Shown: positions 16,416 to 53,295 of the stretch, in pieces | Layout: every line of letters begins with the position of its first letter | How positions within the stretch are numbered: the stretch's first letter is position 1 | Source of the DNA: Escherichia coli | Lineage (GTDB): Bacteria; Pseudomonadota; Gammaproteobacteria; Enterobacterales; Enterobacteriaceae | Length of the DNA: 64,000 nt | Direction: 5' to 3' (one strand) | NCBI RefSeq assembly: GCF_044324785.1 | Contig: NZ_CP172127.1 | Made by a program: the position numbers and the translations under genes | Notes under the pieces: model-generated | Databases searched by the model: none | What the model was told of the DNA's origin: nothing | The model's input: only the letters and a program-made list of their open reading frames with translations

Positions 16416-16462
16416 ATTTTTTTGTTGTTCTTCCACGTAGTTTGTGCTTACAATTTAAACGC

Positions 16463-19327: not shown

Positions 19328-19394
19328 TGTTTTCCACATTCCCACAGGGACTCATCCCTGTGGGACGGGTCCCGGCTTTTTCAGGAGAAATTTC

Positions 19395-19733: not shown

Positions 19734-19808
19734 CACACCGCCATCCCGTGAGGGCTCAGCTCCTCACGGGGCTGTTCCCTCGGTGATTTTCATACAGAGA
19801 GGAGCAGA

Positions 19809-20246: not shown

Positions 20247-20332
20247 CCGGCTGGACTTTTGACGATGGCGGAATGTGACAATTCCGCTTTTCCCGTGAGG
20301 GCATTGTTCCTCACGGGACAATGCCCTCTTCA

Positions 20333-21331: not shown

Positions 21332-21340
21332 TGAAACAAT

Positions 21341-21366
21341 GCGCCACATTTTGTGGCGCTTTTTTA
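21341..21366. terminator. hairpin terminator between convergent genes
   Basis: GCGCCAC-ATTTT-GTGGCGC then T-run. Confidence 0.5.
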
Positions 21367-21412
21367 ATAAATCAGTGATGGCAGAGTTGTTATTGTAAAT
21401 AACTCTCCGTGT

Positions 21413-24328: not shown

Positions 24329-24330
24329 GA

Positions 24331-26367: not shown

Positions 26368-26581
26368 AACGCACCTCCAGAATGCACGGAGGTACTTGAC
26401 GCGGAATTTTTATACAGGCATATTGTTGCGTTGCGTTGCGTTGCGTTGCGTTGCGTTGCGTTGCGTTGCGTTGCGTTGCGTTGCGTTGCGTTGCGTTGCG
26501 TTGCGTTGCGTTGCGTTGCGTTGCGTTGCGTTGCGTTGCGTTGCGTTGCGTTGCGTTGCGTTGCGTTGCGTTGCGTTTCAT
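26318..26581 (-). CDS. leader ORF containing the pentanucleotide tract; encodes (RNATQ)x10; overlaps mod start by 49 nt in current frame
   Basis: ATG at 26581 with SD GAGG; ORF reads through repeat and ends at 26318 inside mod. Confidence 0.4.
   Translation of the reverse strand: MKRNATQRNATQRNATQRNATQRNATQRNATQRNATQRNATQRNATQRNATQQYACIKIPRQVPPCILEVRYEYTTPISTEKRNSFL
26426..26575. repeat. pentanucleotide simple-sequence repeat (TTGCG)x30 on + strand (CGCAA on mod strand)
   Basis: 30 perfect tandem units counted directly. Confidence 0.95.
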
Positions 26582-26614
26582 TAAATAGCCTCGAGTTTCG
26601 TTTTACAGGTTTTT

Positions 26615-26643
26615 ATTCTAACCTGAATTGTTGATTTTCTGAA
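26615..26643 (-). promoter_or_regulatory. candidate sigma70 promoter for leader-mod-res
   Basis: -35 TTCAGA and -10 TAGAAT with 17-bp spacing on minus strand, about 30 nt upstream of leader ATG. Confidence 0.35.
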
Positions 26644-26661
26644 TAAGTCTGACGTCAGTTG

Positions 26662-26830
26662 TTACGGGAAGGTATCAGAGTGGCTAGATGCACTGTGGCA
26701 CGTCTCATGGCGGTTATGGGGCTTGCCGGCGTTCTCCGGGGGGTAAAGCTCCGTGCTACTGTCACCTGGAACGCCGTTGCCGCAGGCGACCGCGTAAACC
26801 GTCTGTACCGCCCGGGCCCAATATTAAGAA
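26662..26830 (+). pseudogene. short remnant resembling IS3-family transposase OrfB N-terminal region
   Basis: translation VARCTVARLMAVMGLAGVLRGVKLRATV...DRVNRLY resembles the RxxVARLMRxxGL pattern of IS3-family OrfB; GC-rich patch in AT-rich context. Confidence 0.3.
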
Positions 26831-26858
26831 CTAACGTCATACCAGGGACGTTGTCTGA

Positions 26859-27872
26859 ATGGATGAGAAGCTAAAACATGCGGATTTATCGTCTTTGCCA
26901 GAGCAGGTGAGGGTTGCCGCTAGGGAGCTTGTTGACCTGAAGTTTCGTATCGATATGGCAGCAAGAGGCGGTACGTCAGGGATACCACTTGACCTGCATG
27001 GGAGGATGACAGGAGGAGAATGGGGGCCGCATTGCGGGCTGGAATTTTTCTGCAGCATCATTCCTTTTTTCCCGCGAGATTTTGAAACCTGTTCAGTAAC
27101 TGAAATGTTGGTTCCTACCTTACATACCTTCGGCTGCAACTGGCGTTGGTGGCCCGATCGTTATTGTAGCGACAAAGATGAACACTATATACGGCGTCAC
27201 ATTTTTTCTGATTACGGGCTGAAAAGTACGAGCTATACCTTCATTCCTCAGTTGGGATTGTTCTGCCCGAGTGAAGGTAAAAATCGTGTTAACTTCTGCC
27301 GCCATCACGGTATCGAATATATCCCCGCACAGGTTTATTCCCATGATTACCCAGAAGCAAATCGAATCTCTGTGTACGTTCAGGATACTGCCGGAGGGCT
27401 GGATGTGTGGGCCGTTCTTGATAATCGCTATGTTCAGAAGGTTACTCACTATGCCTTTGCGCTCCCACTTTTGTGCGCTTATGGGGTAGAGTTCCCAGGT
27501 AAGTGGCCAGCAGGATGGCCATCGATATCGGACCTCCTGGCTAATCAACTGTGTTGCACTGATGACACAACCTTTCATAAACCCGTGATCGATATGCAAG
27601 CTGTCAGGGATACGCTGGATCGTGATGAGAACAGCAGAGAGGATGGGGAGATGTATGTCAAAACCAATGTGGTTGAGCTGCCGCTGGCCGGGCTGGTTCG
27701 CTTCATTCTGATCGCAATGTTACTGAGTTTAGGTGCGTTGTTCATCCACGAGGTACTGGATGAGGGAAGCCTGTCCAGGATTGCACTGGGAATAAGCACT
27801 TTCACGGCTGGCGTGGTTGCTTCGTTTTTTATCCCAGCGTTCCGTATCAAGAAAAAATATCTTCGCAAATAG
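26859..27872 (+). CDS. hypothetical protein with C-terminal double TM anchor
   Basis: 337 aa; Cys/Trp-rich soluble domain then two hydrophobic helices; no family recognised. Confidence 0.45.
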   Translation: MDEKLKHADLSSLPEQVRVAARELVDLKFRIDMAARGGTSGIPLDLHGRMTGGEWGPHCGLEFFCSIIPFFPRDFETCSVTEMLVPTLHTFGCNWRWWPDRYCSDKDEHYIRRHIFSDYGLKSTSYTFIPQLGLFCPSEGKNRVNFCRHHGIEYIPAQVYSHDYPEANRISVYVQDTAGGLDVWAVLDNRYVQKVTHYAFALPLLCAYGVEFPGKWPAGWPSISDLLANQLCCTDDTTFHKPVIDMQAVRDTLDRDENSREDGEMYVKTNVVELPLAGLVRFILIAMLLSLGALFIHEVLDEGSLSRIALGISTFTAGVVASFFIPAFRIKKKYLRK

Positions 27873-28012
27873 TTGTGGCATTTCTTGAACACTTTTTCGA
27901 GACAGGTTCAACCGCAGGCATTCAGGCCAAACATGCGGTTAAACTACGTATTCAATTAACTGCCCTAAATATGGCTAAGCGCCCGGACGATATGTCTGTC
28001 TGCACCTAGGTG

Positions 28013-28142
28013 GAAATTACACCCTCTAAAGGGAGCTGATCTTAGAGGTCATTGGGAAATATCAGTAAACTCTAACTGGCGAATTACCTTTCGATTTGAA
28101 GGCGAAGACGCAATTCTGGTTGACTATCAGGATTATCATTGA
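28013..28142 (+). pseudogene. higB/RelE-like toxin, C-terminal fragment only
   Basis: KGADLRGHWEISVNSNWRITFRFEGEDAILVDYQDYH matches HigB C-terminal consensus; N-terminus absent (in-frame stop upstream). Confidence 0.5.
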
Positions 28143-28204
28143 GGGATAACTGAACCGCCCCGGGAATCCTGGAGACTAAACTCCCTGATAAAGAGGTAAA
28201 CAGA

Positions 28205-28546
28205 ATGACTAAAAATACTCGTTTTTCCCCCGAAGTCCGTCAGAGGGCGATTCGTATGGTTCTGGAAAGTCAGGGCGAATATGACTCACAGTGGGCGGCA
28301 ATTTGTTCCATTGCCCCAAAGATTGGCTGTACACCGGAGACTCTGCGTGTCTGGGTACGCCAGCATGAGCGGGATACCGGAGGCGGTGATGGCGGGCTCA
28401 CCACCGCTGAACGTCAGCGTCTGAAAGAGCTGGAACGTGAAAATCGTGAACTGCGCCGCATCGTCTATGGAAACGACATTCGTGCTGGATGCTCTGGAGC
28501 AGGCGTTATGGGCCCGTCGACCGTCCGGCACAGTCCATCACAGTGA
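28205..28546 (+). pseudogene. IS629-like transposase OrfA, 3'-disrupted
   Basis: [85 protein letters not shown] then divergent tail. Confidence 0.6.
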
Positions 28547-28853
28547 TAAAGGTTCTCAGTATGTATCGCTGGCCTACACACAGCGGCTTAAGGAAGCCGG
28601 ATTACTGGCATCAACAGGAAGTACTGGTGACTCGTATGACAACGCGATGGCGGAGAGCATCAATGGCCTTTACAAAGCGGAGGTAATACACCGTAAGAGC
28701 TGGAAAAACCGGACAGAAGTGGAGCTGGCCACACTCACGTGGGTGGACTGGTATAACAATCGACGATTGCTGGAAAGGCTGGGCCATATCCCACCGGCAG
28801 AAGCAGAAAAAGCTTATTATGCTTCCATCGGAAACGATGATCTGGCAGCCTGA
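28437..28853 (+). pseudogene. IS629-like transposase OrfB, C-terminal part only
   Basis: [49 protein letters not shown]... DDE-domain C-terminus. Confidence 0.6.
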
Positions 28854-28899
28854 GTTCACAGATAAAACACTCTCCAGGAAACCCGGGGCGGTTCAAACT

Positions 28900-38416: not shown

Positions 38417-39937
38417 TCAGTGCAGCAGCGTATAGCTGTCCTCGTCGATGGGAGAGATGTAATGGGCCGCCAGCGGATCAACCTGCCCGCTGTTGATTTT
38501 TCCCAGCAGATGCTGATTTCGTGTCATGCCGCCCAGCTCCCGGTGCCAGTATGTTCTGGCCTCAATACGCCCCTTTTCCCGGTACAACTGGAAAAAACGC
38601 GCATCCGGGGAGATGACTTCTGCGATCACCGTTCGTCCTGTCACGCCACGCCAGCAGTGCGGGCAGCCTTCATGATTTCGCAGATATACCTGGTCCGGGT
38701 TGCAGACGCTTTCCACCAGGCGCCGTTCATCATCCGTGCGCTCGGTAGCCACCTCATGCCAGGGGCGACGGCAGTGCGGACATATCAGCTGAACCAGACG
38801 CTGGCTCAGCAGGCCAATGAACAGTTGCGGGTCGGCAATCATCCTGGCCTGTACCCCCTCCATCTCAAGACGTTCGAGGATGTTAATCGGGTCGTTCGCA
38901 TGGATGGTGGTCAGCATCAGATGCCCGGTCATGGCGGCTTTTATTGCCGTAATGGCGGAATCGTGGTCACGGATTTCGCCGTTCAGGATCCCGTCAGGGT
39001 CAAGACGCAGTGCTGATTTAATGGAGTCCACCCAGCCCTGTGCGGAATCCATGACGGCGGTCTGAATGGCACCGGGTATACGGCCCTCTGGCGGGGATTC
39101 AATGGTGAACAGCCTGCGACGGGGCAGAAGAATACCGCCGGTATTGTTGAAGCCGTACTGTTCAAGGTACGCCGCAGAGGCGGTTCTCAGCGTGGTGGAT
39201 TTTCCTGAACCTGTTGGTCCTGAGAGCGTGATAATACCTTCAGGGCGCTGCAGAATACGGCGCAGGGTGCGCTCCTGCTCAGGGTGGTAGCCCAGCATGC
39301 TGAAGGTCGGGATTTGCTGACTGTCATCCTTGATCAGACGGAGCACAGCATAGAGGCCGCCCACGCAGGGATAGTGGGAGTAGCGTGCACCAAACAGACC
39401 GGCCAGTTTCAGGTACTGCTCTGAAAGACGCGCATCCTGAGGCACCCCGGGATCAAACTGTGTGCCCTTGATGACGTCGGTCATGCCGGAATAGGTGGCC
39501 CCCAGTAATTCGAGGCCTTCTTCTTTCCGGAGGATATCGAGCACTTCCAGTTCGCCGTGAACCCGGGCTTCCACATAGGTGAAGTCCGTGTTGTCTCGTC
39601 CCGGGGTCATATGAAGGTCTGAGGCATCCAGTTGAGCGGCTTTTCTGATGTAATCAAGAACTTTTCTTTGTACTGTGTTGATCCCTCCGTCGGATAAAAC
39701 GCCCGGTGCACGTTCCGTATTATTGCTGTTCAGGGTTGCGATAACGTCAAGAGTGGTAAAATCGAATTTGCTGATTTTTCCCGGATAGCGGGAGCGTAAG
39801 AGCGTCAGGTAACGTTGTACAGAGGTGATGTGCTTCTTCGCCTCGACGACTTTCACCCTGATTTTTCCGTCAGCGTCATGCTGAATTGCGACGAAATCAC
39901 GAATATCTTCAGGAGGCAGTTCGATAGTCTCTGGCAT
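38417..39937 (-). CDS. pilQ: type IV pilus assembly ATPase PilQ (GspE-like)
   Basis: 506 aa; Walker A GPTGSGKST; tetracysteine motif CPHC...CPHC. Confidence 0.85.
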   Translation of the reverse strand: MPETIELPPEDIRDFVAIQHDADGKIRVKVVEAKKHITSVQRYLTLLRSRYPGKISKFDFTTLDVIATLNSNNTERAPGVLSDGGINTVQRKVLDYIRKAAQLDASDLHMTPGRDNTDFTYVEARVHGELEVLDILRKEEGLELLGATYSGMTDVIKGTQFDPGVPQDARLSEQYLKLAGLFGARYSHYPCVGGLYAVLRLIKDDSQQIPTFSMLGYHPEQERTLRRILQRPEGIITLSGPTGSGKSTTLRTASAAYLEQYGFNNTGGILLPRRRLFTIESPPEGRIPGAIQTAVMDSAQGWVDSIKSALRLDPDGILNGEIRDHDSAITAIKAAMTGHLMLTTIHANDPINILERLEMEGVQARMIADPQLFIGLLSQRLVQLICPHCRRPWHEVATERTDDERRLVESVCNPDQVYLRNHEGCPHCWRGVTGRTVIAEVISPDARFFQLYREKGRIEARTYWHRELGGMTRNQHLLGKINSGQVDPLAAHYISPIDEDSYTLLH

Positions 39938-39946
39938 GATGGCACC

Positions 39947-40408
39947 TCACGGGAGTAGCGTCTGCCTGTTGCCGTTGTATTCCAGAATCACACTGTCCGG
40001 TGTGATTTGTTCCACCATGAACAGTGTACCGGGTAATGCCTGTCCGGCCCTGACATCAGTTTCAGTTCCTCCGGGGAGTATGACGCGTGCTGAAAGCTGT
40101 GGCTGAATACCAAAGATTTCTTTCAGACGGGGGGATGAAAATGCCTGTGAACCGGAGGAGGTGCCAGCCGCATTTTCCGGCTGATGTCCCGTGACAGAAC
40201 CGGAAACCGGGGAGATACCCTGTTCCAGTGTCCGCAATTCATGACGAATTTTTTCTCTTGCCAGCATCGCTTCATACAGGGCGGTTTCTTCCTGAATCTG
40301 CTCAATCTGCAGTTGTTTGTTCTGTGACGCGTCATTTTCGTTGCCGGCCACTGCCATTGCCGGTAACAGCAGGGCTGCAATCAGCAGCGCTTTTGTTTTA
40401 TCGTGCAT
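39947..40408 (-). CDS. pilP: PilP-like pilus biogenesis protein
   Basis: about 154 aa with signal peptide; position in operon. Confidence 0.55.
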   Translation of the reverse strand: MHDKTKALLIAALLLPAMAVAGNENDASQNKQLQIEQIQEETALYEAMLAREKIRHELRTLEQGISPVSGSVTGHQPENAAGTSSGSQAFSSPRLKEIFGIQPQLSARVILPGGTETDVRAGQALPGTLFMVEQITPDSVILEYNGNRQTLLP

Positions 40409-41705
40409 AATATTTACCTGTGAACTGATAACGGAAACGACCATTTTCCAGTTGTCTTGTGACAGAGAGAAAACGGACAGATGGCTCGCTGAAGCGCTCT
40501 GCCAGCTGGTTAGCCGGGAGTAGCGTCTGTATCTGCAGGTCATACTCTTTCCACGGTGGCTGGATGATGTTTCCGTTTTCATCAGTGAAGCTGTTATTGA
40601 CTTCCTGCCAGTCAATCTGCAGTTGAACTGACTGTGCGAGCGTGGTCAGTCGTTCCTGCAGGTCTCGGGTTTCCGGAAGGGAATCAACCGGGACAGGATT
40701 ATCCGGGAGCCGGAATGTGACCGGCAGTGCAACGCCGCCAGAGTTCCCTTCAGGCATAACAATAAACGGCCGGGTGTCTGTGAGTTCAGTGATGCGCCGG
40801 ATGAAGGCTGTCACTGTCGTGCCTGCTGTATTGGTGTATGAAGACCGCAGATTACCGCTGTTACCGTCAGAAGAACATTCAGCCAGGGTATAACGCCATC
40901 CGGCAGCAGACAGTGGCGTCTGGTTCCATGTTGTGCTGCATTGCCGGATAAATTCTCCGCTCTCAGGCTGCCTCGTCCATGGTGGCGTTATACGTGCTTC
41001 AGCTGCTTTCCGGGCGCTTTCTTCCCGTTCCGCTTTTTCCGCCTGCCAGATTTCATAACGTTGCCAGCCGTACCACGATGCGCCAAGCAGCGTGATGATG
41101 AGTAAGGCTGTCATTAACTGTGGGCCTCTGGACACGGGGAGCAGACGCGCTTCTGCCGGATGCTTTCTGGTGCTGATCAGGTTTGACAGCGGTAGCGGGA
41201 TACACCGACTGTCTGGTGAAAAACCGTCAGGTTCGTAGCGTACCCAGCCGTTTTCCGGTTCCGCATTGAGCATCAGGAACGTGTTGCGGGCTTCCGTGAT
41301 TTCAGTCGGGGTACCGGTAACGTCGTTAACCAGAATGCCATTAATCACCGATACAAACGCACAGGTGAGTTCAGCGTCGTCGTTCTCGTCGTTCCCGATG
41401 ATGAAAATGGCATACCCACCTGATTTGAGTAGCGGGCGTATTAACATTGCCAGTGACAGGCACTGGCGAATGTTACGGGGGATATCTGCATCCTGACGAC
41501 TGAGCAGGGCAATCATCATTTCATCACCGTTTTCACCGTCGTGGTTGTGGCAGGAAAGATACAGTTCTGCGCCCTGTGACCGGGCAAACCGCCGGGCATT
41601 CCGGTAACCGGGAGGTATGCTCTTCCAGTCAAGGCCCGCAAGGAATGCCTGTTTACCCGATATCAGTGAAACCGGACGAATTTTTTTCTGCATTGACCCG
41701 TTCAA
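40398..41705 (-). CDS. pilO: PilO-like pilus biogenesis protein
   Basis: 435 aa, one TM segment; position in operon. Confidence 0.6.
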   Translation of the reverse strand: MNGSMQKKIRPVSLISGKQAFLAGLDWKSIPPGYRNARRFARSQGAELYLSCHNHDGENGDEMMIALLSRQDADIPRNIRQCLSLAMLIRPLLKSGGYAIFIIGNDENDDAELTCAFVSVINGILVNDVTGTPTEITEARNTFLMLNAEPENGWVRYEPDGFSPDSRCIPLPLSNLISTRKHPAEARLLPVSRGPQLMTALLIITLLGASWYGWQRYEIWQAEKAEREESARKAAEARITPPWTRQPESGEFIRQCSTTWNQTPLSAAGWRYTLAECSSDGNSGNLRSSYTNTAGTTVTAFIRRITELTDTRPFIVMPEGNSGGVALPVTFRLPDNPVPVDSLPETRDLQERLTTLAQSVQLQIDWQEVNNSFTDENGNIIQPPWKEYDLQIQTLLPANQLAERFSEPSVRFLSVTRQLENGRFRYQFTGKYYAR

Positions 41706-41716
41706 GGGAACCTCCG

Positions 41717-43342
41717 TCAGATTACGTGCGGTGTGATCAGCACAACCAGAATGGTGTCATCGTCACCGCTGTCAGTGCCGCCACCCAGCCCGAAGAATGC
41801 CGGGCTGCCGACGCCCTGGCGCACGGATTTGCTGCCGGACTGCCGGAATCCGCTGAGAATGACGGTCTGACCTGATTTCAGGTCGATGGTCTGGTTGATG
41901 GTTTTCAGGTCCACCGTGGGTACCTGTGCCCGGCTGCCGCCGCTCTCGAACACCTCAAAGGTGGGTTTGTCGGAGAGGTTCATGCTGAAGAGCAGCTGCA
42001 GGCTGCGCGCATCCGGCTGAATGAACGGCAGCAGGGTCATGTTGAAGCCGGTGGTGATGGTGGCGGCGTTCAGGGAGGTGCTGGTCCCGACGTTGGCCGT
42101 GGTGTCGGTGGTGACACCTTCGATATAGCCCTGCTGGCTGGCCACCTGCATGGGCACCGGCGTCATGTTTTTGGTGACGGCGGAGTTCTGTGTGACCACG
42201 CTGACGGTGCCCTGACTGGAGAGCGCCTTCAGGAAGGCCTTCGAGCCGGTGAGCTTACCGTCCACAATGGAGACGCCACTGGTGATGATGTCATCGGCGG
42301 CACTGCTGAATGCCCCTCCCAGCGTGAGGCCGAGACGTCCGTCGCTGAAGACGGCATTCCAGTCAATGCCGGCCTGGTCACGGCGGGTTTTTCTGACGCT
42401 GAGGACTTCCACGTTCAGCACCACCTGACGTCGCATCTCGCGGTTACGTGCCTCCACAAAACGGCTGACGGTGTCGAGGACCCGAGGGGTGTCGGTGACG
42501 GTGAGAAAGCCGGTGGCAAGCACCATCCGGCCGGTCCCGGGGGTCAGCATGGCACCGACGGCATTTTTCAGGTCCTCATAGAGGGTGGACTTCATGTCGA
42601 CCGTGGTGGTCTGGGTGTTGCTGGCCTCCCCGCTGAGGGTGCCGGCGTTACTGCCGGTACTGCTGCCGGATGAGGAGGAGGCGGTGCCACTGACCACCCG
42701 GGCGTTGTAGGTCACCTGAGAGTCCATGTAGGTGACCGGGAAGGTGCGTGTCTCCAGCCAGTAAAAGGTGATGGCGCGCCGGTCACTGTCGTAACGGTAC
42801 GAGATACCGAGCCGGGAGGCGACGGTATCCAGCAGCTGCCGCAGCCCGGTGGCGCTGAGTTCCGGCAGGACGGCACCGCCGCCCGGGGGGATGACCTGTG
42901 CGCCACTGCCGACGGCGGCCAGCGGCACCATGCCGTTCGGGTCCGGTGCGGGGATTGCGCCTGTCAGCTGCTGTGTGGGGCCGGTGGTGGCCAGCGCCTG
43001 CCAGACGTCGGCGGTGATGGTCACGGGGATACCGCAGCTTCCGGTGATGCGCTGGGCTATCTGCCGCAGGCTGATATCCCGGCGGGTGTTGATGATGATG
43101 GGGCAGCCCGGCAGGCTCTGGTGTGCGGGGCTGACGCTGACAGGGGAGGGGTTGATCCACTGTCGCGTGGTCTCCGTGACCACCGGCCGGGATTTACGGA
43201 GTTCGCCTGCGTGCCGGCGCGCTTTCTCCAGTGTGGCGGTGGCGTCTTTTTCCGTGTTGCTGATACGTTCGGCCGTACCGCAGCCTGACAGCAGCAGGGC
43301 GACGGCAGTCAGTGGCAGGAGCATGTGTTGTCTTTTTTTCAT
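41717..43342 (-). CDS. pilN: PilN-like secretin-type outer-membrane lipoprotein
   Basis: about 541 aa from MKKRQHMLLPLTAVALLLSGC (lipobox); C-terminal secretin-like domain. Confidence 0.65.
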   Translation of the reverse strand: MKKRQHMLLPLTAVALLLSGCGTAERISNTEKDATATLEKARRHAGELRKSRPVVTETTRQWINPSPVSVSPAHQSLPGCPIIINTRRDISLRQIAQRITGSCGIPVTITADVWQALATTGPTQQLTGAIPAPDPNGMVPLAAVGSGAQVIPPGGGAVLPELSATGLRQLLDTVASRLGISYRYDSDRRAITFYWLETRTFPVTYMDSQVTYNARVVSGTASSSSGSSTGSNAGTLSGEASNTQTTTVDMKSTLYEDLKNAVGAMLTPGTGRMVLATGFLTVTDTPRVLDTVSRFVEARNREMRRQVVLNVEVLSVRKTRRDQAGIDWNAVFSDGRLGLTLGGAFSSAADDIITSGVSIVDGKLTGSKAFLKALSSQGTVSVVTQNSAVTKNMTPVPMQVASQQGYIEGVTTDTTANVGTSTSLNAATITTGFNMTLLPFIQPDARSLQLLFSMNLSDKPTFEVFESGGSRAQVPTVDLKTINQTIDLKSGQTVILSGFRQSGSKSVRQGVGSPAFFGLGGGTDSGDDDTILVVLITPHVI

Positions 43343-43531
43343 GCAGAAATCCTTGTGTGAAACGTGAAAACAGTGAGCAGAGCAGGGAGGGCAGAAGCGC
43401 TTCGGGACTGAAGTCTGCGCGTGATGGCGATATATCCGCGGGACATGACCGCGGCCGGATATGCAGACTTCAGTCCACAGGCTCCTCACACTGTGCGGGA
43501 CAGCGAAGGTTAACGGTGCAGTGATGTCCCG

Positions 43532-43969
43532 CTAGTTGAAATAAACAAATGCGCTGTCAGGAATGACGGACGGCACGCTGATACCGGTGTCCTGACCTGT
43601 GGTGTTCAGCAGTCGCCGCCCCTTCACCCGGCCTGCCAGCGCGGTTTTGTGGGTGATGTCTGCCAGCGCACCTGCAAGCCCCGGGCGGTCATCCTGCCAG
43701 ACAAAGACCCGCTGTCCGGCGATGATATGGCGGGTACCGTATACCGGGCGGAAACCCGTGGCGGTGACGGGGAGCGTGCCACCCCCCGTGCGCTCAGCCG
43801 GATGGGTGTACAGCCGGTCGTTAATGCCGTTCATGAGGCGGACCATCTCCCACGCACGTTCACGCATCTCCGCCTGCTCGCTGTACACGGTGACCCGGTG
43901 GGTACTGCTGTTGTGAAACCAGGTCAGCGCCACGGTCAGGGCCATGACCAGGGAGAGCGACCAGCCCAT
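43532..43969 (-). CDS. pilM: PilM-like protein
   Basis: about 145 aa with N-terminal TM; start adjacent to pilL stop. Confidence 0.5.
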   Translation of the reverse strand: MGWSLSLVMALTVALTWFHNSSTHRVTVYSEQAEMRERAWEMVRLMNGINDRLYTHPAERTGGGTLPVTATGFRPVYGTRHIIAGQRVFVWQDDRPGLAGALADITHKTALAGRVKGRRLLNTTGQDTGISVPSVIPDSAFVYFN

Positions 43970-43971
43970 GG

Positions 43972-44697
43972 TCAGTCTCCCGGTCTGTCGCTGACGTGCA
44001 CCACACACTGCGTGCTGTTGATGGCTGCATACAGCGGCGTCTGTGCGTCCTGATAGAGACGGAAGAGTTCACTGAGCGCGTGGCGGAACTCGCCGGTGAA
44101 ATGCAGCGGCGCATCGATGCTGTAATTGAGTCCGGGGTTCTGCCAGGCCAGCTGCCAGGTGCCACCGGCCTGACAGGGAACGGCGGCCACCCACTGCTCA
44201 AGACCGGCACGCAGCAGGGTTCCGCGGGCAAGAGTCCAGGTGGTCCGTGCATGCGCCGGTTGCGGCATGTTTGCTGATTTTTCCGCGGTTTTTTCCTGCA
44301 GACTGGTGGTGCCCGGGGTGGCCTGAGACGGACTGAACAGGGTGTTCCGCTCAATACGTACATGCTTCTTCTCCGTGTCGGTGATGGCGCGGAGCTGATA
44401 TTTTTTCAGCATGCGTTCCGTAACGTAATTCCACTGGTCATTTCCCTTCCATGACACCGTGCGGGGCGGCCTGACATCCGGTGCAATGTCAAATGTCCAT
44501 CCCGGCGGTATCAGTTGCTGCATGGCTTTTTTCAGTGATAACCCTTTACCGTCCCGGGGAATAAATTTCAGTGCTCCCGGAGCGCTGCTGACCGTGGACG
44601 ATGAGGGTGCACTGACCTGAGAAGGTGACGGTGCAGCAAAAAGTGGAACAGAAAATGCCAGCAGCGGCACAATAAGAAGTGGTTTCAGTGGTGTCAT
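43972..44697 (-). CDS. pilL: PilL-like conjugative-transfer-region lipoprotein/secreted protein
   Basis: 241 aa with signal peptide; first large gene of pil operon. Confidence 0.55.
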   Translation of the reverse strand: MTPLKPLLIVPLLAFSVPLFAAPSPSQVSAPSSSTVSSAPGALKFIPRDGKGLSLKKAMQQLIPPGWTFDIAPDVRPPRTVSWKGNDQWNYVTERMLKKYQLRAITDTEKKHVRIERNTLFSPSQATPGTTSLQEKTAEKSANMPQPAHARTTWTLARGTLLRAGLEQWVAAVPCQAGGTWQLAWQNPGLNYSIDAPLHFTGEFRHALSELFRLYQDAQTPLYAAINSTQCVVHVSDRPGD

Positions 44698-44749
44698 ATT
44701 ATGGTCCTGTATCGCACATTTTTTGTGTTTCCTGAGCCTGTATCCGGTT

Positions 44750-44968
44750 TTATTCCGGCTGAACTCTGCTGCATGAGAATGCGGTGACGTTCACTTTCAC
44801 ACTGAACGATTTACCGGCCTCTTTTTCTTTTGAAAACAGCCTGACGCATTCAGGCTCAGTCATCGGTGTGTTCTGAAAACGCACCCAGGATACCGGTGCA
44901 CCACCAGGCTTCAGGATGGTGGCTTCAATCCGGTATTTATGCGGTGTGGTGTCTGTTGTTGCTGTCAT
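44750..44968 (-). CDS. small hypothetical protein at head of pil operon
   Basis: 72 aa ORF. Confidence 0.3.
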   Translation of the reverse strand: MTATTDTTPHKYRIEATILKPGGAPVSWVRFQNTPMTEPECVRLFSKEKEAGKSFSVKVNVTAFSCSRVQPE

Positions 44969-45494
44969 TCATGGCTCCTGTTGCCGGTTTCCGGTCCCGG
45001 AAAAACAGGCGACATCAGCAACAAGGGGAAAAACGCGATGTCGCCTGAAAGGTACTGGTGCAGCGGTGCGTTGTACGGACGCAGGTCCGCACAACCGGAA
45101 ATACACGGGATGATTCGGTCAGTGTATTTTCGTGTTGTGCGCCTGTACTGATACGGCAGGGTGTGATGAGTGTTACCTGTGGCTGCAGGCGCGGCACGTC
45201 ACTCATAACGTAGCATTCTGTTTCCTCCTCAGCCCGGCTTCAGGGCGTTGCCGCAATACCCGATTGTTAAAGAGCCTTACCGGCATGGTGTCCGGTGTCA
45301 CCGCGCGGATAACGATACGGCGGTGTCTGAAGGGATGATGCTGCGGCGCTCTGCACATGGCGACGATTAATTCTTTTTGTGTTTCTGAAAATTTATTGCC
45401 GGGAAATTTCTGGTGTGACAGGGTGAATTAATTCTGGTCAGCGACGCTCCTGAGAAGGCAGAGTGCGCTGACATTTCGTGAACGGAGGAATGCC

Positions 45495-47003
45495 ATGTCC
45501 CTGAATCCCACCGATGAACAGTCAGCCATCATTCACTGGCAGGGGGAAAAACTGGTGGTGAATGCCTTTGCCGGTACAGGCAAAACCAGCACACTGGTGC
45601 AGTTCGCCGCAGCCTGCCCTGAGAGCCGGATGCTGTATCTGGCCTATAACCGCGCGATTCGTGATGAGGCGGAGCGCCGGTTTCCCTTTAATGTGGAGTG
45701 CAAAACCTCCCATCAGCTGGCGTATTCGCGGTTCGGAAAGCATTTCCGGCATCGTCTGGTGCCGGGGCTGTCAGTGACGGATGTAGCGAGAAAACTGAAC
45801 ACCCGCTACTGGACGCTTGCCCGTGTTGCCATGACCGCGCTGAATCAGTTCATCTGTTCGGCGGACGTGGCGCCCGGAATGCAGCATATGCCGCCTCCCG
45901 ACGAGATGAAGGGCATGTCGCCACAGGATGCGCTGCGTGCCGTGCAGATCCTCTGGCATGAAATGAGCAATCCGGATGGCAATTTTCCGGTCACTCACGA
46001 CACCTATCTGAAGCTCTATCAGCTTTCCTCACCGGATCTGTCACGCAGGTGGGATACGATCCTTTTTGATGAGGCCCAGGATGCGAATCCGGTGACGTCC
46101 GCACTGGTGCTGGGGCAGCGGTGCAGGGTGGTACTGGTTGGCGACCGTTACCAGCAGATTTATCGTTTTCGTGGTGCCAGCAATGCACTGTCGCATCCGG
46201 CACTGAACGGGGCGGACCGTCTCTGGCTGACGCAAAGTTTTCGTTTTGGTCCTGCCGTGGCCGGGGTGGCCAGCCAGTTACTGAAGCGTGCCGGCGAGAG
46301 CCGTGAGGTGACCGGCAGGGGCGGGGATGATGAAGTGCTGACGGCAGGTGAAATGCGTGCGCGCGTGAAGGCAGGGAAGATGACCGGTCACAGGGCGATA
46401 CTGAGCCGGACGGTGGCCGGTGTGATTGGCACCGCACTGATGGCGGCAATGCGTGGCAGGAAGGTTTACTGGGTGGGGGGCATTGAAGGCTACAGAACGG
46501 AGGCACTGGAAGATCTTTACTGGTTTCAGATGGATATGCCGGAGCGGATGCACAGTGACAGACTGCGGAAGGACTACCGGGGTTTTGACGAGTACCGTCA
46601 TATTGCGAAGGTGACGAAGGATGTGGAAATGAATCAGTCCATTCGTCTGCTGGAGCTGTGCTTTCCGCTGCCGAAGAAACTCGAACTTCTCAGAAAGCAC
46701 ACCGTCACGAATGAACAGGAGGCGGATATCACGGTCTCAACGGCACACCGCAGTAAGGGACTGGAGTGGTCACTGGTGGTACTCGATGATGATTTTCAGG
46801 ATATCACCGACCCGCTGATAAGCGAGCAGGAGCGGCGGGATGAAACCAATCTGCTCTATGTGGCGGTCACCCGGGCGCGCAGAACGCTGGTTCTCAATGA
46901 ACTCATGCAGCAGCTGACGGAAGCTGCCGGCGATGGTGGTGCACCCGGAAACGCGCCGGTGCAGGGGAAGGAAGACGATGGTGTGGAGGGAGAGGATGTT
47001 TAA
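45495..47003 (+). CDS. UvrD/PcrA-like superfamily I DNA helicase
   Basis: 502 aa; Walker A FAGTGKT, Walker B ILFDEAQD; SD GGAGGA. Confidence 0.75.
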   Translation: MSLNPTDEQSAIIHWQGEKLVVNAFAGTGKTSTLVQFAAACPESRMLYLAYNRAIRDEAERRFPFNVECKTSHQLAYSRFGKHFRHRLVPGLSVTDVARKLNTRYWTLARVAMTALNQFICSADVAPGMQHMPPPDEMKGMSPQDALRAVQILWHEMSNPDGNFPVTHDTYLKLYQLSSPDLSRRWDTILFDEAQDANPVTSALVLGQRCRVVLVGDRYQQIYRFRGASNALSHPALNGADRLWLTQSFRFGPAVAGVASQLLKRAGESREVTGRGGDDEVLTAGEMRARVKAGKMTGHRAILSRTVAGVIGTALMAAMRGRKVYWVGGIEGYRTEALEDLYWFQMDMPERMHSDRLRKDYRGFDEYRHIAKVTKDVEMNQSIRLLELCFPLPKKLELLRKHTVTNEQEADITVSTAHRSKGLEWSLVVLDDDFQDITDPLISEQERRDETNLLYVAVTRARRTLVLNELMQQLTEAAGDGGAPGNAPVQGKEDDGVEGEDV

Positions 47004-48525
47004 GCGGTTCAGACGTATGCTGCCCGGCACAAAGGGCACGGAGCCTGGCGTGGTCGCGCCGGTGATACCGGCAGGGTTTTATGCGCCGCTCACGGCAGAG
47101 GCACTGTTATCACCAGAGCACAGGGAGCTGAGGCTCAGGCAGGTCTGGGATAACAATCCGATGCCCCGTGATGTATACGACAGGATGTGCCTTGAACCAC
47201 TCAGCCGGCTGCTGCTGAACACCCAGAACGTCCCGGCAACACGGGAAGGACGGTGGTCCCGTGCCGGTGGATTTGGTGATCTGACGGTACTGTACACCAC
47301 GTATGCCGTTCGTCTGGCAAGAGGGTACATGTTTCCACCGGATGCGACCCCGGAAGACCAGGCGGCTCAGGCCGCAGTCTGGCATGCGGTGATTTTCTGG
47401 TCAGCGCTGTTTTACCACCTGCCCCTGCTGGCGCACCTTGAGGGGGAACTGCTGAGTGGGCGGGGCTGGCAGCCAGGAATTTCTGTGCCTGACGAACCTT
47501 TCCGTTTCCGGTTCAGGAAGACGGCGCCGCAGGGTACGGAAGCGCAACAACTTGCGGCCCTGACTGCCGGCACGCTGTTACCGGACGGCGCAACGGCCTG
47601 GCTTGTGACGGCGCCGGGCGCACTGCAGAATCTGGCCGGGGCGCTCTGGCATCAGCATCCCGGGATGGCGCTGATTCGTGATGTGCTGCAGGAAGCGGCA
47701 AGGCAGACAGAGAGTCCGCTGAATACCTGCGCTGTCACTGCGCCGGTTACTGCGGAGGCTTCAGCAGACATTCGTCCTGCTGACCCGGTGGTGACCGGCA
47801 GCACGGACAGTGTGGTGGCAGTCACTGAGGTGCAGCCGGCAGAGGAGGTGAAGACTGAGAGCGTGCAGACAGAGACTGAAGGTGGTGGTGAGTCCGCCGG
47901 GGCGTCAGAGGTGCCGTCCGCACAGCAGGAACTGACGGTTCAGACAGCGCCAGTGGTGACGGCAGATGATGAAGCGGTCAGTGCTGCTCCTGCGGATCAG
48001 GACACAGCAATGCTGCTGAGTCTTTTTTCAGCAGATGAGTCCGAAACTGCTGAACCTGAAAACAGTATTAAATCGTCAGCCGATCGGGACGGCCAAAGTG
48101 ACGTACCGGCAGTACAGGGAGAACAAACCAGCGTTATTTATCCGGAGGGCGAAGCAGATACGGAAGAGGTGGATTTTATTACTTGGCTGAAATCGGGGTT
48201 GTCATCGGGGATGATTGAAATAAATACACCTTCCGCGAGAGTGCATTGTATTGCGGGGTATGTTTTTTTGTGTGTCCCGGATATTTTTTATCTGTATCAG
48301 AAAATGACGGGAAGCCGTCGTGACCGCAGGAGTGTTCAGGCGTTGTTTGAACGTTCCCGTATTCACAAAATCCGGGAAGGTGAGCGTTTTTTCAGCCTGC
48401 ATCTGTATAGTGTACCTGACAGAACAGGGAGTTATAAAGCTGTAAGCGGATATCTGGTTAAAAGCCGTTATCTGTGTGGTTATAACGCAGTGCCCGGGGA
48501 CAGTGAATACATTGCTTTTCCATAA
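46996..48525 (+). CDS. hypothetical protein with acidic low-complexity linker (helicase-associated)
   Basis: about 509 aa from ATG at 46996 with SD; overlaps helicase stop by 8 nt. Confidence 0.45.
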   Translation: MFKRFRRMLPGTKGTEPGVVAPVIPAGFYAPLTAEALLSPEHRELRLRQVWDNNPMPRDVYDRMCLEPLSRLLLNTQNVPATREGRWSRAGGFGDLTVLYTTYAVRLARGYMFPPDATPEDQAAQAAVWHAVIFWSALFYHLPLLAHLEGELLSGRGWQPGISVPDEPFRFRFRKTAPQGTEAQQLAALTAGTLLPDGATAWLVTAPGALQNLAGALWHQHPGMALIRDVLQEAARQTESPLNTCAVTAPVTAEASADIRPADPVVTGSTDSVVAVTEVQPAEEVKTESVQTETEGGGESAGASEVPSAQQELTVQTAPVVTADDEAVSAAPADQDTAMLLSLFSADESETAEPENSIKSSADRDGQSDVPAVQGEQTSVIYPEGEADTEEVDFITWLKSGLSSGMIEINTPSARVHCIAGYVFLCVPDIFYLYQKMTGSRRDRRSVQALFERSRIHKIREGERFFSLHLYSVPDRTGSYKAVSGYLVKSRYLCGYNAVPGDSEYIAFP

Positions 48526-48555
48526 CAGCACCGGGTCATTCATCCGTTCAGGGAG

Positions 48556-49668
48556 ATGTATTCCCCTATGAAGAAAGATGTCGAAAAAATAACGTGGGAG
48601 GAATTACTCTTTGAGTACTTCCTTGAGAAAAATCTTAAACCTGATACTGAACACAGCTACCGCAAAGTTGTCCGTCTGTTTGATAAGTTCCTGGGCGGTG
48701 ATTCCTGGCCCGGCGATGTCACACCGAGAGACATTCAGCGATGGCGACGTCATATGCTTAAAGATCAGGGGCGTTCAGTAAACACCTGGAATAACAGAGT
48801 GTCACATCTCCGACCGCTCCTGGCGCTTGGGATCAAGAAAAAGTGGTTACCACAGACGGAAAATCCGCTTGATGGCACTTCAGTGCCCGGGGCATCAAAA
48901 CAGAAAAAAACGCTCACTGATAAAGAGATGGTCAGGATTTACCGTACAGTTCAGGCTTTTGCTGAAGCTGAGGCCAATAAGATGGTGATCTGTGACAGGC
49001 GGCGCAATGCGATGTACCCTGCATGGTACTGGCTGATCGTGCTGGATACGCTGCGCTTCACGGGGATGCGTTTTAACCAGCTGAAACATATCAGGCTGAA
49101 GGATATTCATGAGGATGAGGCGGTGATTACCCTTCAGCTGGAAGGGAGTAAAACCCGACGTGAATGGCGTGTGCCGATTGTGGAATCGTTACGACTTTCA
49201 CTGAAACATCTTATTGAGTGCGCCCGTGTCAATGGTGCGTCGGATAATGACTATCTCTTTGATGTCTGCCTGTACAGCGAGCATTACAGTCCCGGGAAAT
49301 ACCAGTACTGTGCCAAAAGAGCGCATCAGTCGGTCAAATCTTTTTTCCGCAGACTGAGCCGTGAATGTGGTTTTTTTGTCTCGTCACACAGATTCAGACA
49401 CACACTGGCAACAAAGCTGATGGCGGCACCGGAGCGTAATCTGCACATGGTCAAATCCATTCTGGGGCACAGGAGTGTTGCCACCACCATGGAGTATATT
49501 GATTTTTCGGTGGAAGTTGCTGCTGAGGCACTGGAGGCTGAACTCGGTTTATCCACGGATGAGGCGACAAAAAGACGGATTAAAGAGGCGAAAAAACGCC
49601 GTGAGGCCAGTACCGGGAAAAAGGAAAAACAGGAAAGTTCTGGAGGGGAACTTTCTGACAAGGAATAA
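48556..49668 (+). CDS. int: tyrosine integrase of the island (alternative start at 48568)
   Basis: 370 aa; HxxR (SHRFRHT) and C-terminal GHRSVATTMEYIDF catalytic-Tyr region; adjacent to tRNA-Phe. Confidence 0.8.
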   Translation: MYSPMKKDVEKITWEELLFEYFLEKNLKPDTEHSYRKVVRLFDKFLGGDSWPGDVTPRDIQRWRRHMLKDQGRSVNTWNNRVSHLRPLLALGIKKKWLPQTENPLDGTSVPGASKQKKTLTDKEMVRIYRTVQAFAEAEANKMVICDRRRNAMYPAWYWLIVLDTLRFTGMRFNQLKHIRLKDIHEDEAVITLQLEGSKTRREWRVPIVESLRLSLKHLIECARVNGASDNDYLFDVCLYSEHYSPGKYQYCAKRAHQSVKSFFRRLSRECGFFVSSHRFRHTLATKLMAAPERNLHMVKSILGHRSVATTMEYIDFSVEVAAEALEAELGLSTDEATKRRIKEAKKRREASTGKKEKQESSGGELSDKE

Positions 49669-49872
49669 ACATGCTTGACATCGGACCAGAATGGTGTAAG
49701 CATTTTTGCGTATGCGAGAGCGTGACACCTGTTACCAGCAGGTGCCACGCTTGAGGATACGATACTGAAACCACAGTGTAACCAGACTTACACGGAGATT
49801 TCGTTATGACCGGATCCTGTATTAGACGCCCGTTAAGGATCTCATCCCTTAACCAGCGTACTTTGATGCGTT

Positions 49873-49948
49873 TGGTGCCCGGAGGCGGAATCGAACCACC
49901 GACACGGGGATTTTCAATCCCCTGCTCTACCGACTGAGCTATCCGGGC
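49873..49948 (-). tRNA. pheV: tRNA-Phe (anticodon GAA), variant T-stem
   Basis: 76 nt ending CCA; matches E. coli tRNA-Phe as recalled except T-stem GGTGG/CCGCC instead of CTTGG/CCGAG (compensatory). Confidence 0.9.
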
Positions 49949-50053
49949 AACGGGGCGCATTAAACCTGATTCGCCTCGTCTCGTCAATCAAATTTCTTCA
50001 ATTTAGTGCAGACTGCACAATCTATCATCACTTTGCCGCTATTGCACACATTG

Positions 50054-50761
50054 TCAGGCAAACCAGGCGGTCCAGGCGGCGGAAAGCGGCATTGCCAGAA
50101 GGAGTGCTGGAAGCATGTTGACCACCGGGAACATTTTAATACCACAGATGCGTAATCCGGTTGCCAGCAGCAATAAACCGCCTACGGCGCTGAAGTCTGC
50201 CATCATCGACGGTGTGGTCAGCGGTAATATCAGCGCGGCAGCCCACGCCAGTGTTAACTGGATGATCAGTAATGGAATGCTAATCACCGACACCGCAATA
50301 CCCAGCGAGCAGGCGAAGATCATCGCCGTAAAGAAATCAAGAAATGACTTGGCGATTAAAATACTCGGATCGCCGGTCATCCCTTCGTTCATCGCCCCGA
50401 AGATTCCGGTGCCGCTGGCGCAAAACAGAACAATAATCGCGACAAAATTCTGAATAAAAGATTCATGCGCTGGCTTCTTACGCGAGTGGTGAAACAGATT
50501 ATGCGCTTTGACGACCACTGTATTGACGCCTTTTTCCAGCAGACAAATTTCGCCGATTAATGCTCCGAGTAAGGTTGCTAAAACCATCGCCGGAAGGTTG
50601 GCGCATTTCACCACCAGTAAAATACCAATCCCCAGCGATGCCAGACCAAAAATTGATGTCATGGAGACGCGGATACGTTCCGGTAAGCGTTGGCTAAGGA
50701 GTGCGCCGAAAACGCCACCCAGTAAGACTGCACTTGCGTTGATAAAAGGGCCGATGACCAC
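50054..50761 (-). CDS. yqgA: DUF554 inner-membrane protein YqgA
   Basis: 235 aa, near-identical to E. coli YqgA as recalled; synteny. Confidence 0.85.
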
Positions 50762-51159
50762 AAGAGTTCCTGTTAGCTGTATTGTTTGATTTTCTTATTA
50801 TGAACTTTTGGCGCCGTCGATGGCTTGTTTGTTCGCAAAGTCCTGGCTTGCACGCTTTAGCGAAAGGTGCCATGATTGCGCGAATTTTCTCCTCTCTGTA
50901 CGGAGTTTGCCCGATGCACGCCACCTCCTTACATTCTCTCGCTTATCGCCGTTTTGCGCGAAACTCTTCTCTTTTTATGCTACTGCTCATGCGGTGAAGT
51001 TAACGCACGCTCACTGCAGGACAACAGTAAAATCAGAGCGTTTCTGCTTTTACTGATGTCTGGTGGTCGGAGCTGGTGACCAGTTTGACCCATATCTCAT
51101 GGGGCAGGGTTTTCCACCTTGTCCGGTATTCTTACTTCCCCTAAACGGGTTTTGCGCTT

Positions 51160-53295
51160 ATGAAATCAATGAATATTGCCGCCAGTAGTGAACTGGTATC
51201 CCGACTTTCTACTCATCGCCGCGTGGTGGCGTTGGGAGATACTGATTTTACGGACGTCGCGGCAGTCGTCATTACCGCTGCGGATAGTCGCAGTGGCATT
51301 CTTGCGTTGCTTAAGCGCACCGGTTTTCATCTACCGGTGTTTTTGTATTCCGAACATGCTGTTGAATTACCTGCGGGCGTTACGGCGGTAATCAACGGCA
51401 ACGAGCAGCAGTGGCTGGAGCTGGAATCCGCAGCCTGTCAGTATGAAGAGAATTTGCTGCCACCGTTTTATGACACGCTGACGCAGTACGTTGAGATGGG
51501 TAATAGCACCTTTGCTTGCCCTGGACATCAACATGGTGCGTTCTTTAAAAAGCATCCTGCCGGACGCCATTTTTACGATTTCTTTGGCGAGAACATCTTT
51601 CGCGCCGATATGTGTAACGCTGACGTAAAATTGGGCGATCTGCTTATTCATGAAGGATCGGCGAAAGATGCGCAGAAATTTGCAGCCAAAGTCTTTCATG
51701 CCGATAAAACCTATTTTGTGCTGAACGGCACATCGGCAGCGAATAAAGTGGTGACGAATGCGCTGTTAACGCGTGGCGATCTGGTGCTCTTCGACCGTAA
51801 CAACCGTAAGTCGAATCATCATGGCGCGTTGATTCAGGCGGGGGCGACGCCGGTCTATCTGCAAGCTTCACGTAACCCGTTTGGTTTCATTGGCGGTATT
51901 GATGCGCACTGTTTTAATGAAGAGTATCTGCGCCAGCAAATTCGCGACGTTGCGCCAGAAAAAGCCGACCTGCCGCGCCCGTTTCGCCTGGCGATTATTC
52001 AGCTGGGAACCTATGACGGCACTGTCTATAACGCCCGTCAGGTGATCGATACCGTTGGGCATCTGTGTGATTACATTCTGTTTGATTCCGCGTGGGTCGG
52101 TTACGAACAGTTTATCCCGATGATGGCGGATAGCTCGCCGCTGCTGTTAGAACTTAACGAAAACGATCCGGGGATCTTTGTGACTCAGTCGGTGCACAAA
52201 CAGCAGGCGGGATTCTCACAGACGTCGCAGATCCATAAAAAAGATAACCATATCCGTGGACAGGCGCGTTTTTGCCCACATAAGCGGTTGAATAATGCCT
52301 TTATGCTCCATGCTTCTACCAGCCCGTTCTATCCGCTGTTCGCCGCCCTGGACGTTAACGCCAAAATTCATGAAGGGGAGAGTGGGCGTCGGCTGTGGGC
52401 TGAGTGCGTTGAGTTGGGTATTGAGTCGCGCAAGGCTATTCTTACGCGCTGTAAGCTGTTCCGCCCGTTTATCCCGCCCGTTGTTGATGGCAAATTGTGG
52501 CAGGATTATCCGACGTCAGTGTTAGCCAGCGACCGCCGTTTTTTCAGTTTTGAGCCGGGGGCGAATTGGCACGGCTTTGAAGGATATGCCGCGGATCAGT
52601 ATTTTGTTGATCCGTGCAAGCTGTTACTCACCACGCCGGGTATCGATGCCGAAACCGGCGAATATAGCGACTTTGGCGTTCCGGCGACGATTCTGGCGCA
52701 CTACCTGCGTGAGAACGGCATTGTGCCGGAGAAGTGCGATCTCAACTCCATTCTGTTCTTATTAACTCCGGCGGAAAGCCACGAGAAGCTGGCACAACTG
52801 GTGGCGATGCTGGCGCAGTTTGAACAGCATATTGAGGATGATTCGCCGCTGGCTGAGGTGTTGCCGAGCGTTTATAACAAATATCCGGTGCGCTATCGCG
52901 ACTACACCCTGCGCCAGTTGTGTCAGGAGATGCACGATTTGTATGTCAGTTTCGACGTCAAAGACCTACAAAAAGCGATGTTCCGCCAGCAGAGTTTCCC
53001 GTCAGTGGTGATGAATCCCCAGGATGCGCATAGCGCTTATATTCGCGGTGAAGTGGAGTTGGTGCGGATTCGTGATGCCGAAGGGCGAATTGCGGCAGAA
53101 GGGGCGTTGCCTTATCCACCTGGCGTGCTTTGCGTGGTACCCGGGGAAGTCTGGGGTGGGGCGGTTCAACGTTATTTCCTTGCGCTGGAAGAAGGCGTGA
53201 ATTTGTTGCCGGGATTTTCGCCGGAGTTGCAAGGTGTCTATAGCGAAACCGATGCGGATGGCATGAAACGGTTGTACGGTTATGTGTTGAAGTAA
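51160..53295 (+). CDS. speC: ornithine decarboxylase, constitutive
   Basis: 711 aa, near-identical to E. coli SpeC as recalled. Confidence 0.95.
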   Translation: MKSMNIAASSELVSRLSTHRRVVALGDTDFTDVAAVVITAADSRSGILALLKRTGFHLPVFLYSEHAVELPAGVTAVINGNEQQWLELESAACQYEENLLPPFYDTLTQYVEMGNSTFACPGHQHGAFFKKHPAGRHFYDFFGENIFRADMCNADVKLGDLLIHEGSAKDAQKFAAKVFHADKTYFVLNGTSAANKVVTNALLTRGDLVLFDRNNRKSNHHGALIQAGATPVYLQASRNPFGFIGGIDAHCFNEEYLRQQIRDVAPEKADLPRPFRLAIIQLGTYDGTVYNARQVIDTVGHLCDYILFDSAWVGYEQFIPMMADSSPLLLELNENDPGIFVTQSVHKQQAGFSQTSQIHKKDNHIRGQARFCPHKRLNNAFMLHASTSPFYPLFAALDVNAKIHEGESGRRLWAECVELGIESRKAILTRCKLFRPFIPPVVDGKLWQDYPTSVLASDRRFFSFEPGANWHGFEGYAADQYFVDPCKLLLTTPGIDAETGEYSDFGVPATILAHYLRENGIVPEKCDLNSILFLLTPAESHEKLAQLVAMLAQFEQHIEDDSPLAEVLPSVYNKYPVRYRDYTLRQLCQEMHDLYVSFDVKDLQKAMFRQQSFPSVVMNPQDAHSAYIRGEVELVRIRDAEGRIAAEGALPYPPGVLCVVPGEVWGGAVQRYFLALEEGVNLLPGFSPELQGVYSETDADGMKRLYGYVLK

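Follow-up and report, generated by a model that had tools for sequence, protein, structure and literature searches.

The tRNA-Phe gene at the pheV locus of the Escherichia coli DNA analysed here is a true hybrid, with a front half from E. coli pheV and a back half from an ICEEc2-type element. Within the 64,000 nucleotides of contig NZ_CP172127.1 that were analysed (hereafter the window), tRNA positions 1–26 of this gene are chromosomal, positions 49–76 are element-derived and positions 27–48 are identical in both partners. An element of the ICEEc2 family very probably inserted in pheV by site-specific recombination, its own tRNA-Phe fragment rebuilding the gene in this hybrid form.

A hybrid tRNA-Phe gene at pheV

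The window has one tRNA gene, a tRNA-Phe(GAA) on the minus strand (ARAGORN), which scores 69 bits against the Rfam tRNA model and has the sequence GCCCGGATAGCTCAGTCGGTAGAGCAGGGGATTGAAAATCCCCGTGTCGGTGGTTCGATTCCGCCTCCGGGCACCA. Compared with canonical E. coli tRNA-Phe, it contains exactly four differences, at tRNA positions 49, 50, 64 and 65 (window 49900, 49899, 49885 and 49884): C49–G65 has become G49–C65 and U50–A64 has become G50–C64, while the T-stem pairs U51–G63, G52–C62 and G53–C61 are the same in both genes. The T-stem reads GGTGG/CCGCC in the window and CTTGG/CCGAG in the canonical gene. The presence of yqgA and speC to the right of the tRNA identifies the locus as pheV. The features concerned are:

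49873..49948, minus strand: hybrid tRNA-Phe(GAA) at the pheV locus, the tRNA-side junction (attL); called by ARAGORN, identical to the ICE-adjacent tRNA in 72 E. coli genomes
49884..49900, minus strand: T-arm with the four substitutions, from comparison with canonical tRNA-Phe
49949..53295: chromosomal flank marking pheV, with yqgA (50054–50761, minus strand) and speC (51160–53295, plus strand)

An initial annotation, made from the letters of the sequence, had described this tRNA-Phe as intact, with which ARAGORN and the 69-bit Rfam score agree, and had read its T-stem as GGTGG/CCGCC with four changes that preserve pairing, which are the four located above. It had given the canonical form as CTTGG/CCGAG; this was right, as 5,357 of 5,429 E. 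coli records mismatch the window tRNA at four positions.

ARAGORN, Rfam and fold energy all point to a foldable, intact tRNA gene at this border of the element. The calculated cloverleaf energy is −35.1 kcal/mol for the variant and −32.1 kcal/mol for the canonical form. In half-exchanges, with one T-stem strand of each kind, the cloverleaf has an energy of only about −25, and the minimum-energy fold is no longer the cloverleaf.

The element and its genes

Window positions 1–49872 are colinear, at 95–100% identity, with elements of strain CM2 and of other, mostly avian or human, E. coli isolates; the CM2 element and its flank are 99.7–99.9% identical to the window. In this right-hand part lie the ICE transfer genes, a type III restriction-modification system and a type IVb pilus cluster that includes a shufflon. 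Judged by its sequence, the element is a member of the ICEEc2/pKLC102/PAPI-1/SPI-7 family. The relevant features are:

1..49872, no strand assigned: right-hand ~50 kb of an element assigned to the ICEEc2 family (pKLC102/PAPI-1/SPI-7), colinear with CM2 (L002 and L003)
45495..47003, plus strand: UvrD-like helicase, third gene of the DNA-mobility trio; weak UvrD/Rep/PcrA matches
46933..48525, plus strand: TraI relaxase of the PFGI-1 ICE class (MobH-type); TIGR03760 at 193 bits, above the curated cut-off of 161.4
48556..49668, plus strand: tyrosine recombinase (integrase) of 370 aa, convergent with the tRNA; Pfam PF00589 at 2.6e-18, SAM-like N-terminal domains
49669..49872, minus strand: element-derived spacer (P' arm) from the tRNA 3' end to the integrase stop codon; alignment A1

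The integrase resembles XerC/XerD, scoring below their cut-offs, and is annotated in CM2 as a tyrosine-type recombinase (WP_000711123.1). Its alignment shows the motifs HxxR and GHxxxxTTxxY, and the enzyme is probably active. Between its end and the tRNA 3' end there are 204 bp, close to the ~200 bp estimated initially. A reading of the open reading frames at 45495–49668 as three tyrosine recombinases was rejected, as only one of them encodes a recombinase, beside a helicase and a TraI relaxase. Relatives annotate the counterpart of 45495..47003 as a UvrD-helicase domain protein.

In related elements, annotated genes include (i) 'integrating conjugative element' proteins of the TIGR037xx series, TraD, TraG and a conjugative transfer ATPase; (ii) topoisomerase III, Ssb and replication proteins of the STY4528/STY4534 type; and (iii) at the far end, an SPI-7-type DnaB with ParB and ParA. 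For the window, pilM/N/O2/P/V, TraG, the transfer ATPase and TIGR03749–03759 are transferred annotations, assigned by 97–100% colinearity to the CM2 annotation. The ParA(Soj)/ParB/DnaB module opposite the integrase was seen in CM2 and in 110 E. coli genomes; this region lies outside the window.

The spacer at 49669–49872 replaces the native pheV terminator, and the native downstream sequence is found after the far-border repeats and in strain DSM 103246 (L139). Two hairpins in the spacer are kept across diverged element lineages, apparently with compensating changes (alignment A1): one, GGTTAAGGGATGAGATCCTTAACGGG, lies just past the CCA end and the other, which is longer, lies around 49709–49751 (by eye). 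Neither is followed by a T-run, and a promoter and terminator scan of the junction gave nothing informative. These hairpins could be binding sites for the recombinase or an excisionase, or they could take the place of the pheV terminator as a processing or termination signal.

Some differences from related elements were also observed. A segment of ~1.3 kb (window 33313–34596), bounded by ~20-bp overlaps, has the opposite orientation to that in CM2 and ECCNB12-2 and lies in the pilV region beside a 'site-specific integrase' (Rci-like); it is the shufflon caught in the other orientation. CM2 carries the siderophore receptor/adhesin gene iha, while the window element is without that ~2.3 kb (window ~5375–5469 versus L003 3492–5802), and window 14283–16529 has no counterpart in CM2. 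Cargo therefore varies between near-identical elements, as members of the ICEEc2 family differ in this respect.

Distribution of the variant among E. coli genomes

A tRNA-Phe identical to that of the window is present in 72 of 5,426 complete E. coli genomes (1.3%). The T-stem is canonical only in 5,354 of the 5,426, i.e. GGTGG/CCGCC is absent from them, which is the outcome of the comparison with island-free E. coli that had been proposed at the outset. Only two identity classes relative to the window tRNA-Phe are found among E. coli records: 94.7% in 5,357 of 5,429 and 100% in 72.

Sixty of the 72 variant genomes were listed, and in 59 of these an ICEEc2-family integrase and relaxase directly follow the variant tRNA. 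Fifty-four of the 60 are also among the genomes found to bear the element, with the tRNA at most 2 kb from the element in those that have coordinates. The other six were inspected, and an ICE-type integrase and TraI lie beside the tRNA in five. The variant tRNA-Phe is present at pheV and at pheU, in phylogenetically scattered strains, and integrases that are only 47% identical to each other adjoin the same variant T-arm. The variant therefore travels with the element family and not with a chromosome lineage.

The displaced canonical half at the far border

The part of the hybrid gene that corresponds to the attachment repeat is:

49873..49922, minus strand: 50-nt attachment repeat, tRNA 27–76, in the variant GGTGG/CCGCC form; its canonical twin is at the far border, outside the window

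Within the window, searches with up to three mismatches and with short-word BLAST turned up no further copy of the tRNA 3' end, variant or canonical, of 12 nt or more, because the far border lies ~29 kb to the left of position 1. The CM2 element is ~86 kb long, and window position 1 maps ~29 kb short of the CM2 far border. The initial annotation had placed the displaced 3' end beyond the left end of the window, and in the colinear CM2 element a 50-nt canonical copy does lie there. This direct repeat (L003 40009–40058) directly follows ParA, the sequence after which is ...ttatggcacGGGGATTGAAAATCCCCGTGTCCTTGGTTCGATTCCGAGTCCGGGCACCA. It is 100% identical to canonical tRNA-Phe 27–76 (CTTGG/CCGAG) and 92% identical to the variant, and its differences from the 3' half in the window are the same four T-stem positions. 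All six far borders that were read directly (CM2 and five diverged relatives) are canonical, and the identity of the far-border copies to the tRNA starts at position 27 or 28.

The far border was read in relatives of the window element that are 99.7–100% identical over shared element DNA, and we infer from them that a canonical fragment also lies at the far border of the window's own element. The source genome, ~25–40 kb to the left of the window, is predicted to contain the ParA gene followed by ...GGGGATTGAAAATCCCCGTGTCCTTGGTTCGATTCCGAGTCCGGGCACCA.

Immediately beyond the displaced canonical fragment, CM2 has a P4-type integrase and an island with leoA (L003 40059–41428); the ICE has inserted in front of an existing pheV island to give a tandem array. 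In RefSeq, the far-border junction, made up of element DNA and the 50-nt tRNA-Phe fragment, is labelled 'tRNA-Ser' or 'tRNA-OTHER' in strains YZLc1-3 (L011 624–701) and MS1494 (L010 620–698); these calls look like annotation artefacts that stem from the displaced half-tRNA.

Position of the crossover

Identity between the far border and the tRNA is lost upstream of position 27/28, and the first element-specific base is tRNA position 49. The shared stretch between them is 22 bp long and covers the anticodon stem-loop and the variable loop:

49901..49922, minus strand: interval holding the strand-exchange site, GGGGATTGAAAATCCCCGTGTC, tRNA 27–48, in which element and chromosome are the same

To compare the two ends of individual elements, we used a synthetic far-border query that carries the variant T-arm, which located 20 far borders, all from the two closest element lineages. 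Every one of them has at least four mismatches to this query, and the closest exactly four, which implies a canonical fragment at all 20. The allele combinations in the 20 elements are:

tRNA end variant, far end canonical: 17 of 20
tRNA end canonical, far end canonical: 3 of 20
tRNA end canonical, far end variant: 0 of 20
tRNA end variant, far end variant: 0 of 20

With 17 variant/canonical elements and none reversed, the crossover lies in tRNA 27–48, i.e. 5' of the T-arm, and the whole T-arm comes from the element. A crossover 3' of the T-arm is rejected, as there are no variant far borders among the 20 and the allele pattern is not what it would yield. The most likely place of exchange is the 7-nt anticodon loop, on whose two sides lie the inverted repeats of the anticodon stem. 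Of the initial proposal that the element supplies the 3' ~28 nt of the gene, the element origin of the T-arm is thus retained, while the extent has to be revised: the repeat comprises the last 50 nt (27–76), with the crossover in 27–48.

Source of the foreign T-arm

We scanned public genomes, one per species, for the GGTGG/CCGCC T-arm. Among the matches listed, it is the native tRNA-Phe T-arm of Vibrio (in tandem multi-copy arrays), Photorhabdus, Haemophilus and Rodentibacter (Pasteurellaceae), and also of Marinobacter, Idiomarinaceae, many Burkholderiales and Rhodobacterales. The whole 76-nt gene is identical in Alcanivorax (L064) and Marinobacterium (L090), again among the matches listed. 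The scan shows that this T-arm is widespread in Proteobacteria and points to no specific donor. Because GGTGG/CCGCC is a common native T-arm elsewhere, the compensation reflects the swap of a block and not four mutations in place in E. coli.

The scan also returned tRNA-Phe 3' fragments that start in the anticodon stem (L014, L018, L022, L025, L028, L032, L046, L054, L073, L079, L096, L108, L118, L127 and L132). Their occurrence in many unrelated Proteobacteria shows that the same sublocation of tRNA-Phe is widely used for integration.

Polymorphism of the T-arm and an element-free strain

A fully canonical tRNA lies beside closely related elements in strains TUM9803 (L133), JE86-ST05 (L135), NGF1 (L006), ECOR29 (L136) and FDAARGOS_1077 (L137). 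The same annotated integrase protein (WP_000711123.1 or WP_001682069.1) is found with either T-arm. For example, elements with the same integrase and a spacer identical over its first 70 nt have the variant in the window and CM2 versus the canonical form in TUM9803, and the variant in SW070917 and UCPROB-002 versus the canonical form in JE86-ST05; C5 (variant) and NGF1 (canonical) are one base apart over 70 nt, with different integrase accessions. A link between the variant and one particular integrase allele is therefore rejected, since 47%-identical integrases share the variant and the same integrase has either T-arm. The element-borne T-arm is polymorphic between closely related elements and is not a fixed signature. 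No half-chimeric or intermediate allele was present in the 12 tRNA-side junctions and six far borders read directly.

In strain DSM 103246 (NZ_CP019944.1, L139 2990–3290), a variant pheV runs directly into the native terminator hairpin, after which comes a P4-type integrase; an ICEEc2-type element is missing beside the gene, which makes the strain unique among the 60 variant genomes. Its pheV may be the footprint of a lost element. This strain needs an extra event, such as element loss after conversion or an off-site exchange. Both the polymorphism and DSM 103246 can be explained, hypothetically, by gene conversion (between the repeats or tRNA-Phe copies) followed by normal excision. A broader reading, in which the T-arm is a switchable heritable allele, always exchanged as a whole block through recurrent gene conversion or off-site exchange with host tRNA-Phe genes, is rather unlikely. 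If it were true, host tRNA genes would gradually be rewritten by such elements, with footprints left where they once resided. The two replaced pairs, 49–65 and 50–64, reportedly belong, from work of the Uhlenbeck laboratory, to those T-stem pairs on which the affinity for EF-Tu depends, and the hybrid tRNA might therefore be functionally non-neutral.

Origin of the hybrid gene and alternative explanations

The very probable course of insertion by site-specific recombination is as follows. The attachment site of the element carries a tRNA-Phe fragment that corresponds to the last ~50 nt of the gene, with a GGTGG/CCGCC T-arm, and the tyrosine recombinase exchanged strands in the 22-bp stretch (tRNA 27–48) shared with pheV. 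The product beside yqgA is a complete, foldable hybrid gene, in which position 1 to ~30–48 is that of E. coli and the T-arm and 3' acceptor strand are those of the element. The original CTTGG/CCGAG half was moved ~86 kb away to the ParA-side border and kept as a 50-nt direct repeat. The four changes look compensated because the two T-stem strands had co-evolved in another lineage and arrived from it together, as a block. In an excised circle, the junction would consist of the ParA side, GGGGATTGAAAATCCCCGTGTC, the GGTGG...CCGCC T-arm and the spacer (49872–49669).

The converse arrangement, with a chromosomal origin of the variant T-arm and a canonical copy on the element, would place the crossover 3' of the T-arm, in the acceptor 3' strand or at the junction of T-loop and acceptor; the tRNA would then be native throughout and the far-border fragment derived from the element. 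P4-type pheV islands behave in this way, with repeats of 19–23 bp at the extreme 3' end (PMC11537424), and DSM 103246 has a variant pheV without the element. However, the variant is without an adjacent ICE in only one of the 60 variant genomes and is absent from 5,354 genomes, and the same variant occurs beside the element at both pheV and pheU of unrelated strains. The far-border repeats are 50 nt long and reach back to position 27, rather than being 19–23 nt, and 17 variant/canonical elements with none reversed are hard to reconcile with a chromosome-native T-arm. We consider this arrangement very improbable.

In a further reading, the four changes arose in situ, by point and compensatory mutations or by gene conversion from imported DNA, unrelated to site-specific recombination. 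Over long periods tRNA stems often evolve by compensatory change, and gene conversion occurs between tRNA copies. An origin in place is nevertheless extremely improbable, given that (i) the 12 tRNA-side junctions and six far borders contain no half-compensated alleles and only two identity classes exist; (ii) the allele is identical in scattered strains and at two loci, together with the element; and (iii) it exactly matches a widespread foreign T-arm, with the canonical half kept at the far border. Islands flanked by tRNA genes and direct repeats can be misassembled in draft genomes. The probability that the variant is an artefact of sequencing or assembly at such a repeat junction is negligible: the same allele and junction recur in 72 independently sequenced complete genomes, and the substitutions preserve base pairing and reproduce a T-arm known from nature. 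Recombination between pheV and an element-borne tRNA-Phe fragment remains the best explanation of the hybrid gene.

Relation to known elements and significance

ICEEc2 of E. coli BEN374, reportedly described by Roche et al. 2010 in J Bacteriol 192:5026, is said to belong to the pKLC102/PAGI-2/PAPI-1/SPI-7 family. ICEEc2-type elements are documented in the tRNA-Phe genes (pheU and pheV) of E. coli and Klebsiella (PMC6761156, PMC13127887); excision has been reported for ICEEc2 and ICEKp2 (PMC6761156) and transfer for related elements at pheV and pheU (PMC13127887). Like the window element, ICEEc2 inserts downstream of a tRNA-Phe gene, pheU or pheV, and has a trio of helicase, TraI relaxase and XerC/D-like tyrosine recombinase beside the tRNA. 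It also shares with the window and CM2 elements a type IVb pilus cluster and TIGR037xx transfer genes, and with CM2 a ParA/ParB/DnaB module at the end away from the tRNA.

Many tRNA-targeting integrases use the symmetric anticodon stem-loop as their site, and the sublocation classes reportedly go back to Williams 2002 and Hudson et al. 2015. In the principle behind Islander, the tRNA fragment of the attachment site restores the split gene and a displaced fragment is left at the other end; the anticodon loop is named among the usual crossover sublocations, as the anticodon-centred 'A' class (PMC4383910). The present case matches this principle in its regenerated tRNA, its displaced 3' fragment at the other end, the adjacent tyrosine integrase and a repeat that reaches to the anticodon stem. 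The element-borne fragment is not identical to that of the host, and the regenerated gene is therefore visibly hybrid, which is a corollary of the Islander principle and no departure from it.

Islands with P4-type integrases at pheV (GI-pheV) target the same tRNA hot spot, form a direct repeat out of its 3' end and often occur in tandem. However, their repeats are 19–23 bp at the extreme 3' end (PMC11537424), compared with 50 nt here. With such short repeats the 5' strand of the T-stem stays chromosomal, so both T-stem strands cannot be replaced. Their integrase also belongs to a different subfamily and is transcribed away from the tRNA, whereas that of the window is convergent with it, and unlike the window element they have no conjugation genes.

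The mechanism is thus already known, being the standard preservation of tRNA genes by tRNA-targeting elements, for a known family at a known site. An inference from raw sequence, from four compensated changes to a gene rebuilt by an element and a predicted displaced fragment, is validated here, and the positions of the differences place the crossover 5' of tRNA position 49 without experiment. The hybrid T-arm serves as a sequence marker for present, and rarely past, occupancy of pheV or pheU by ICEEc2-family elements.
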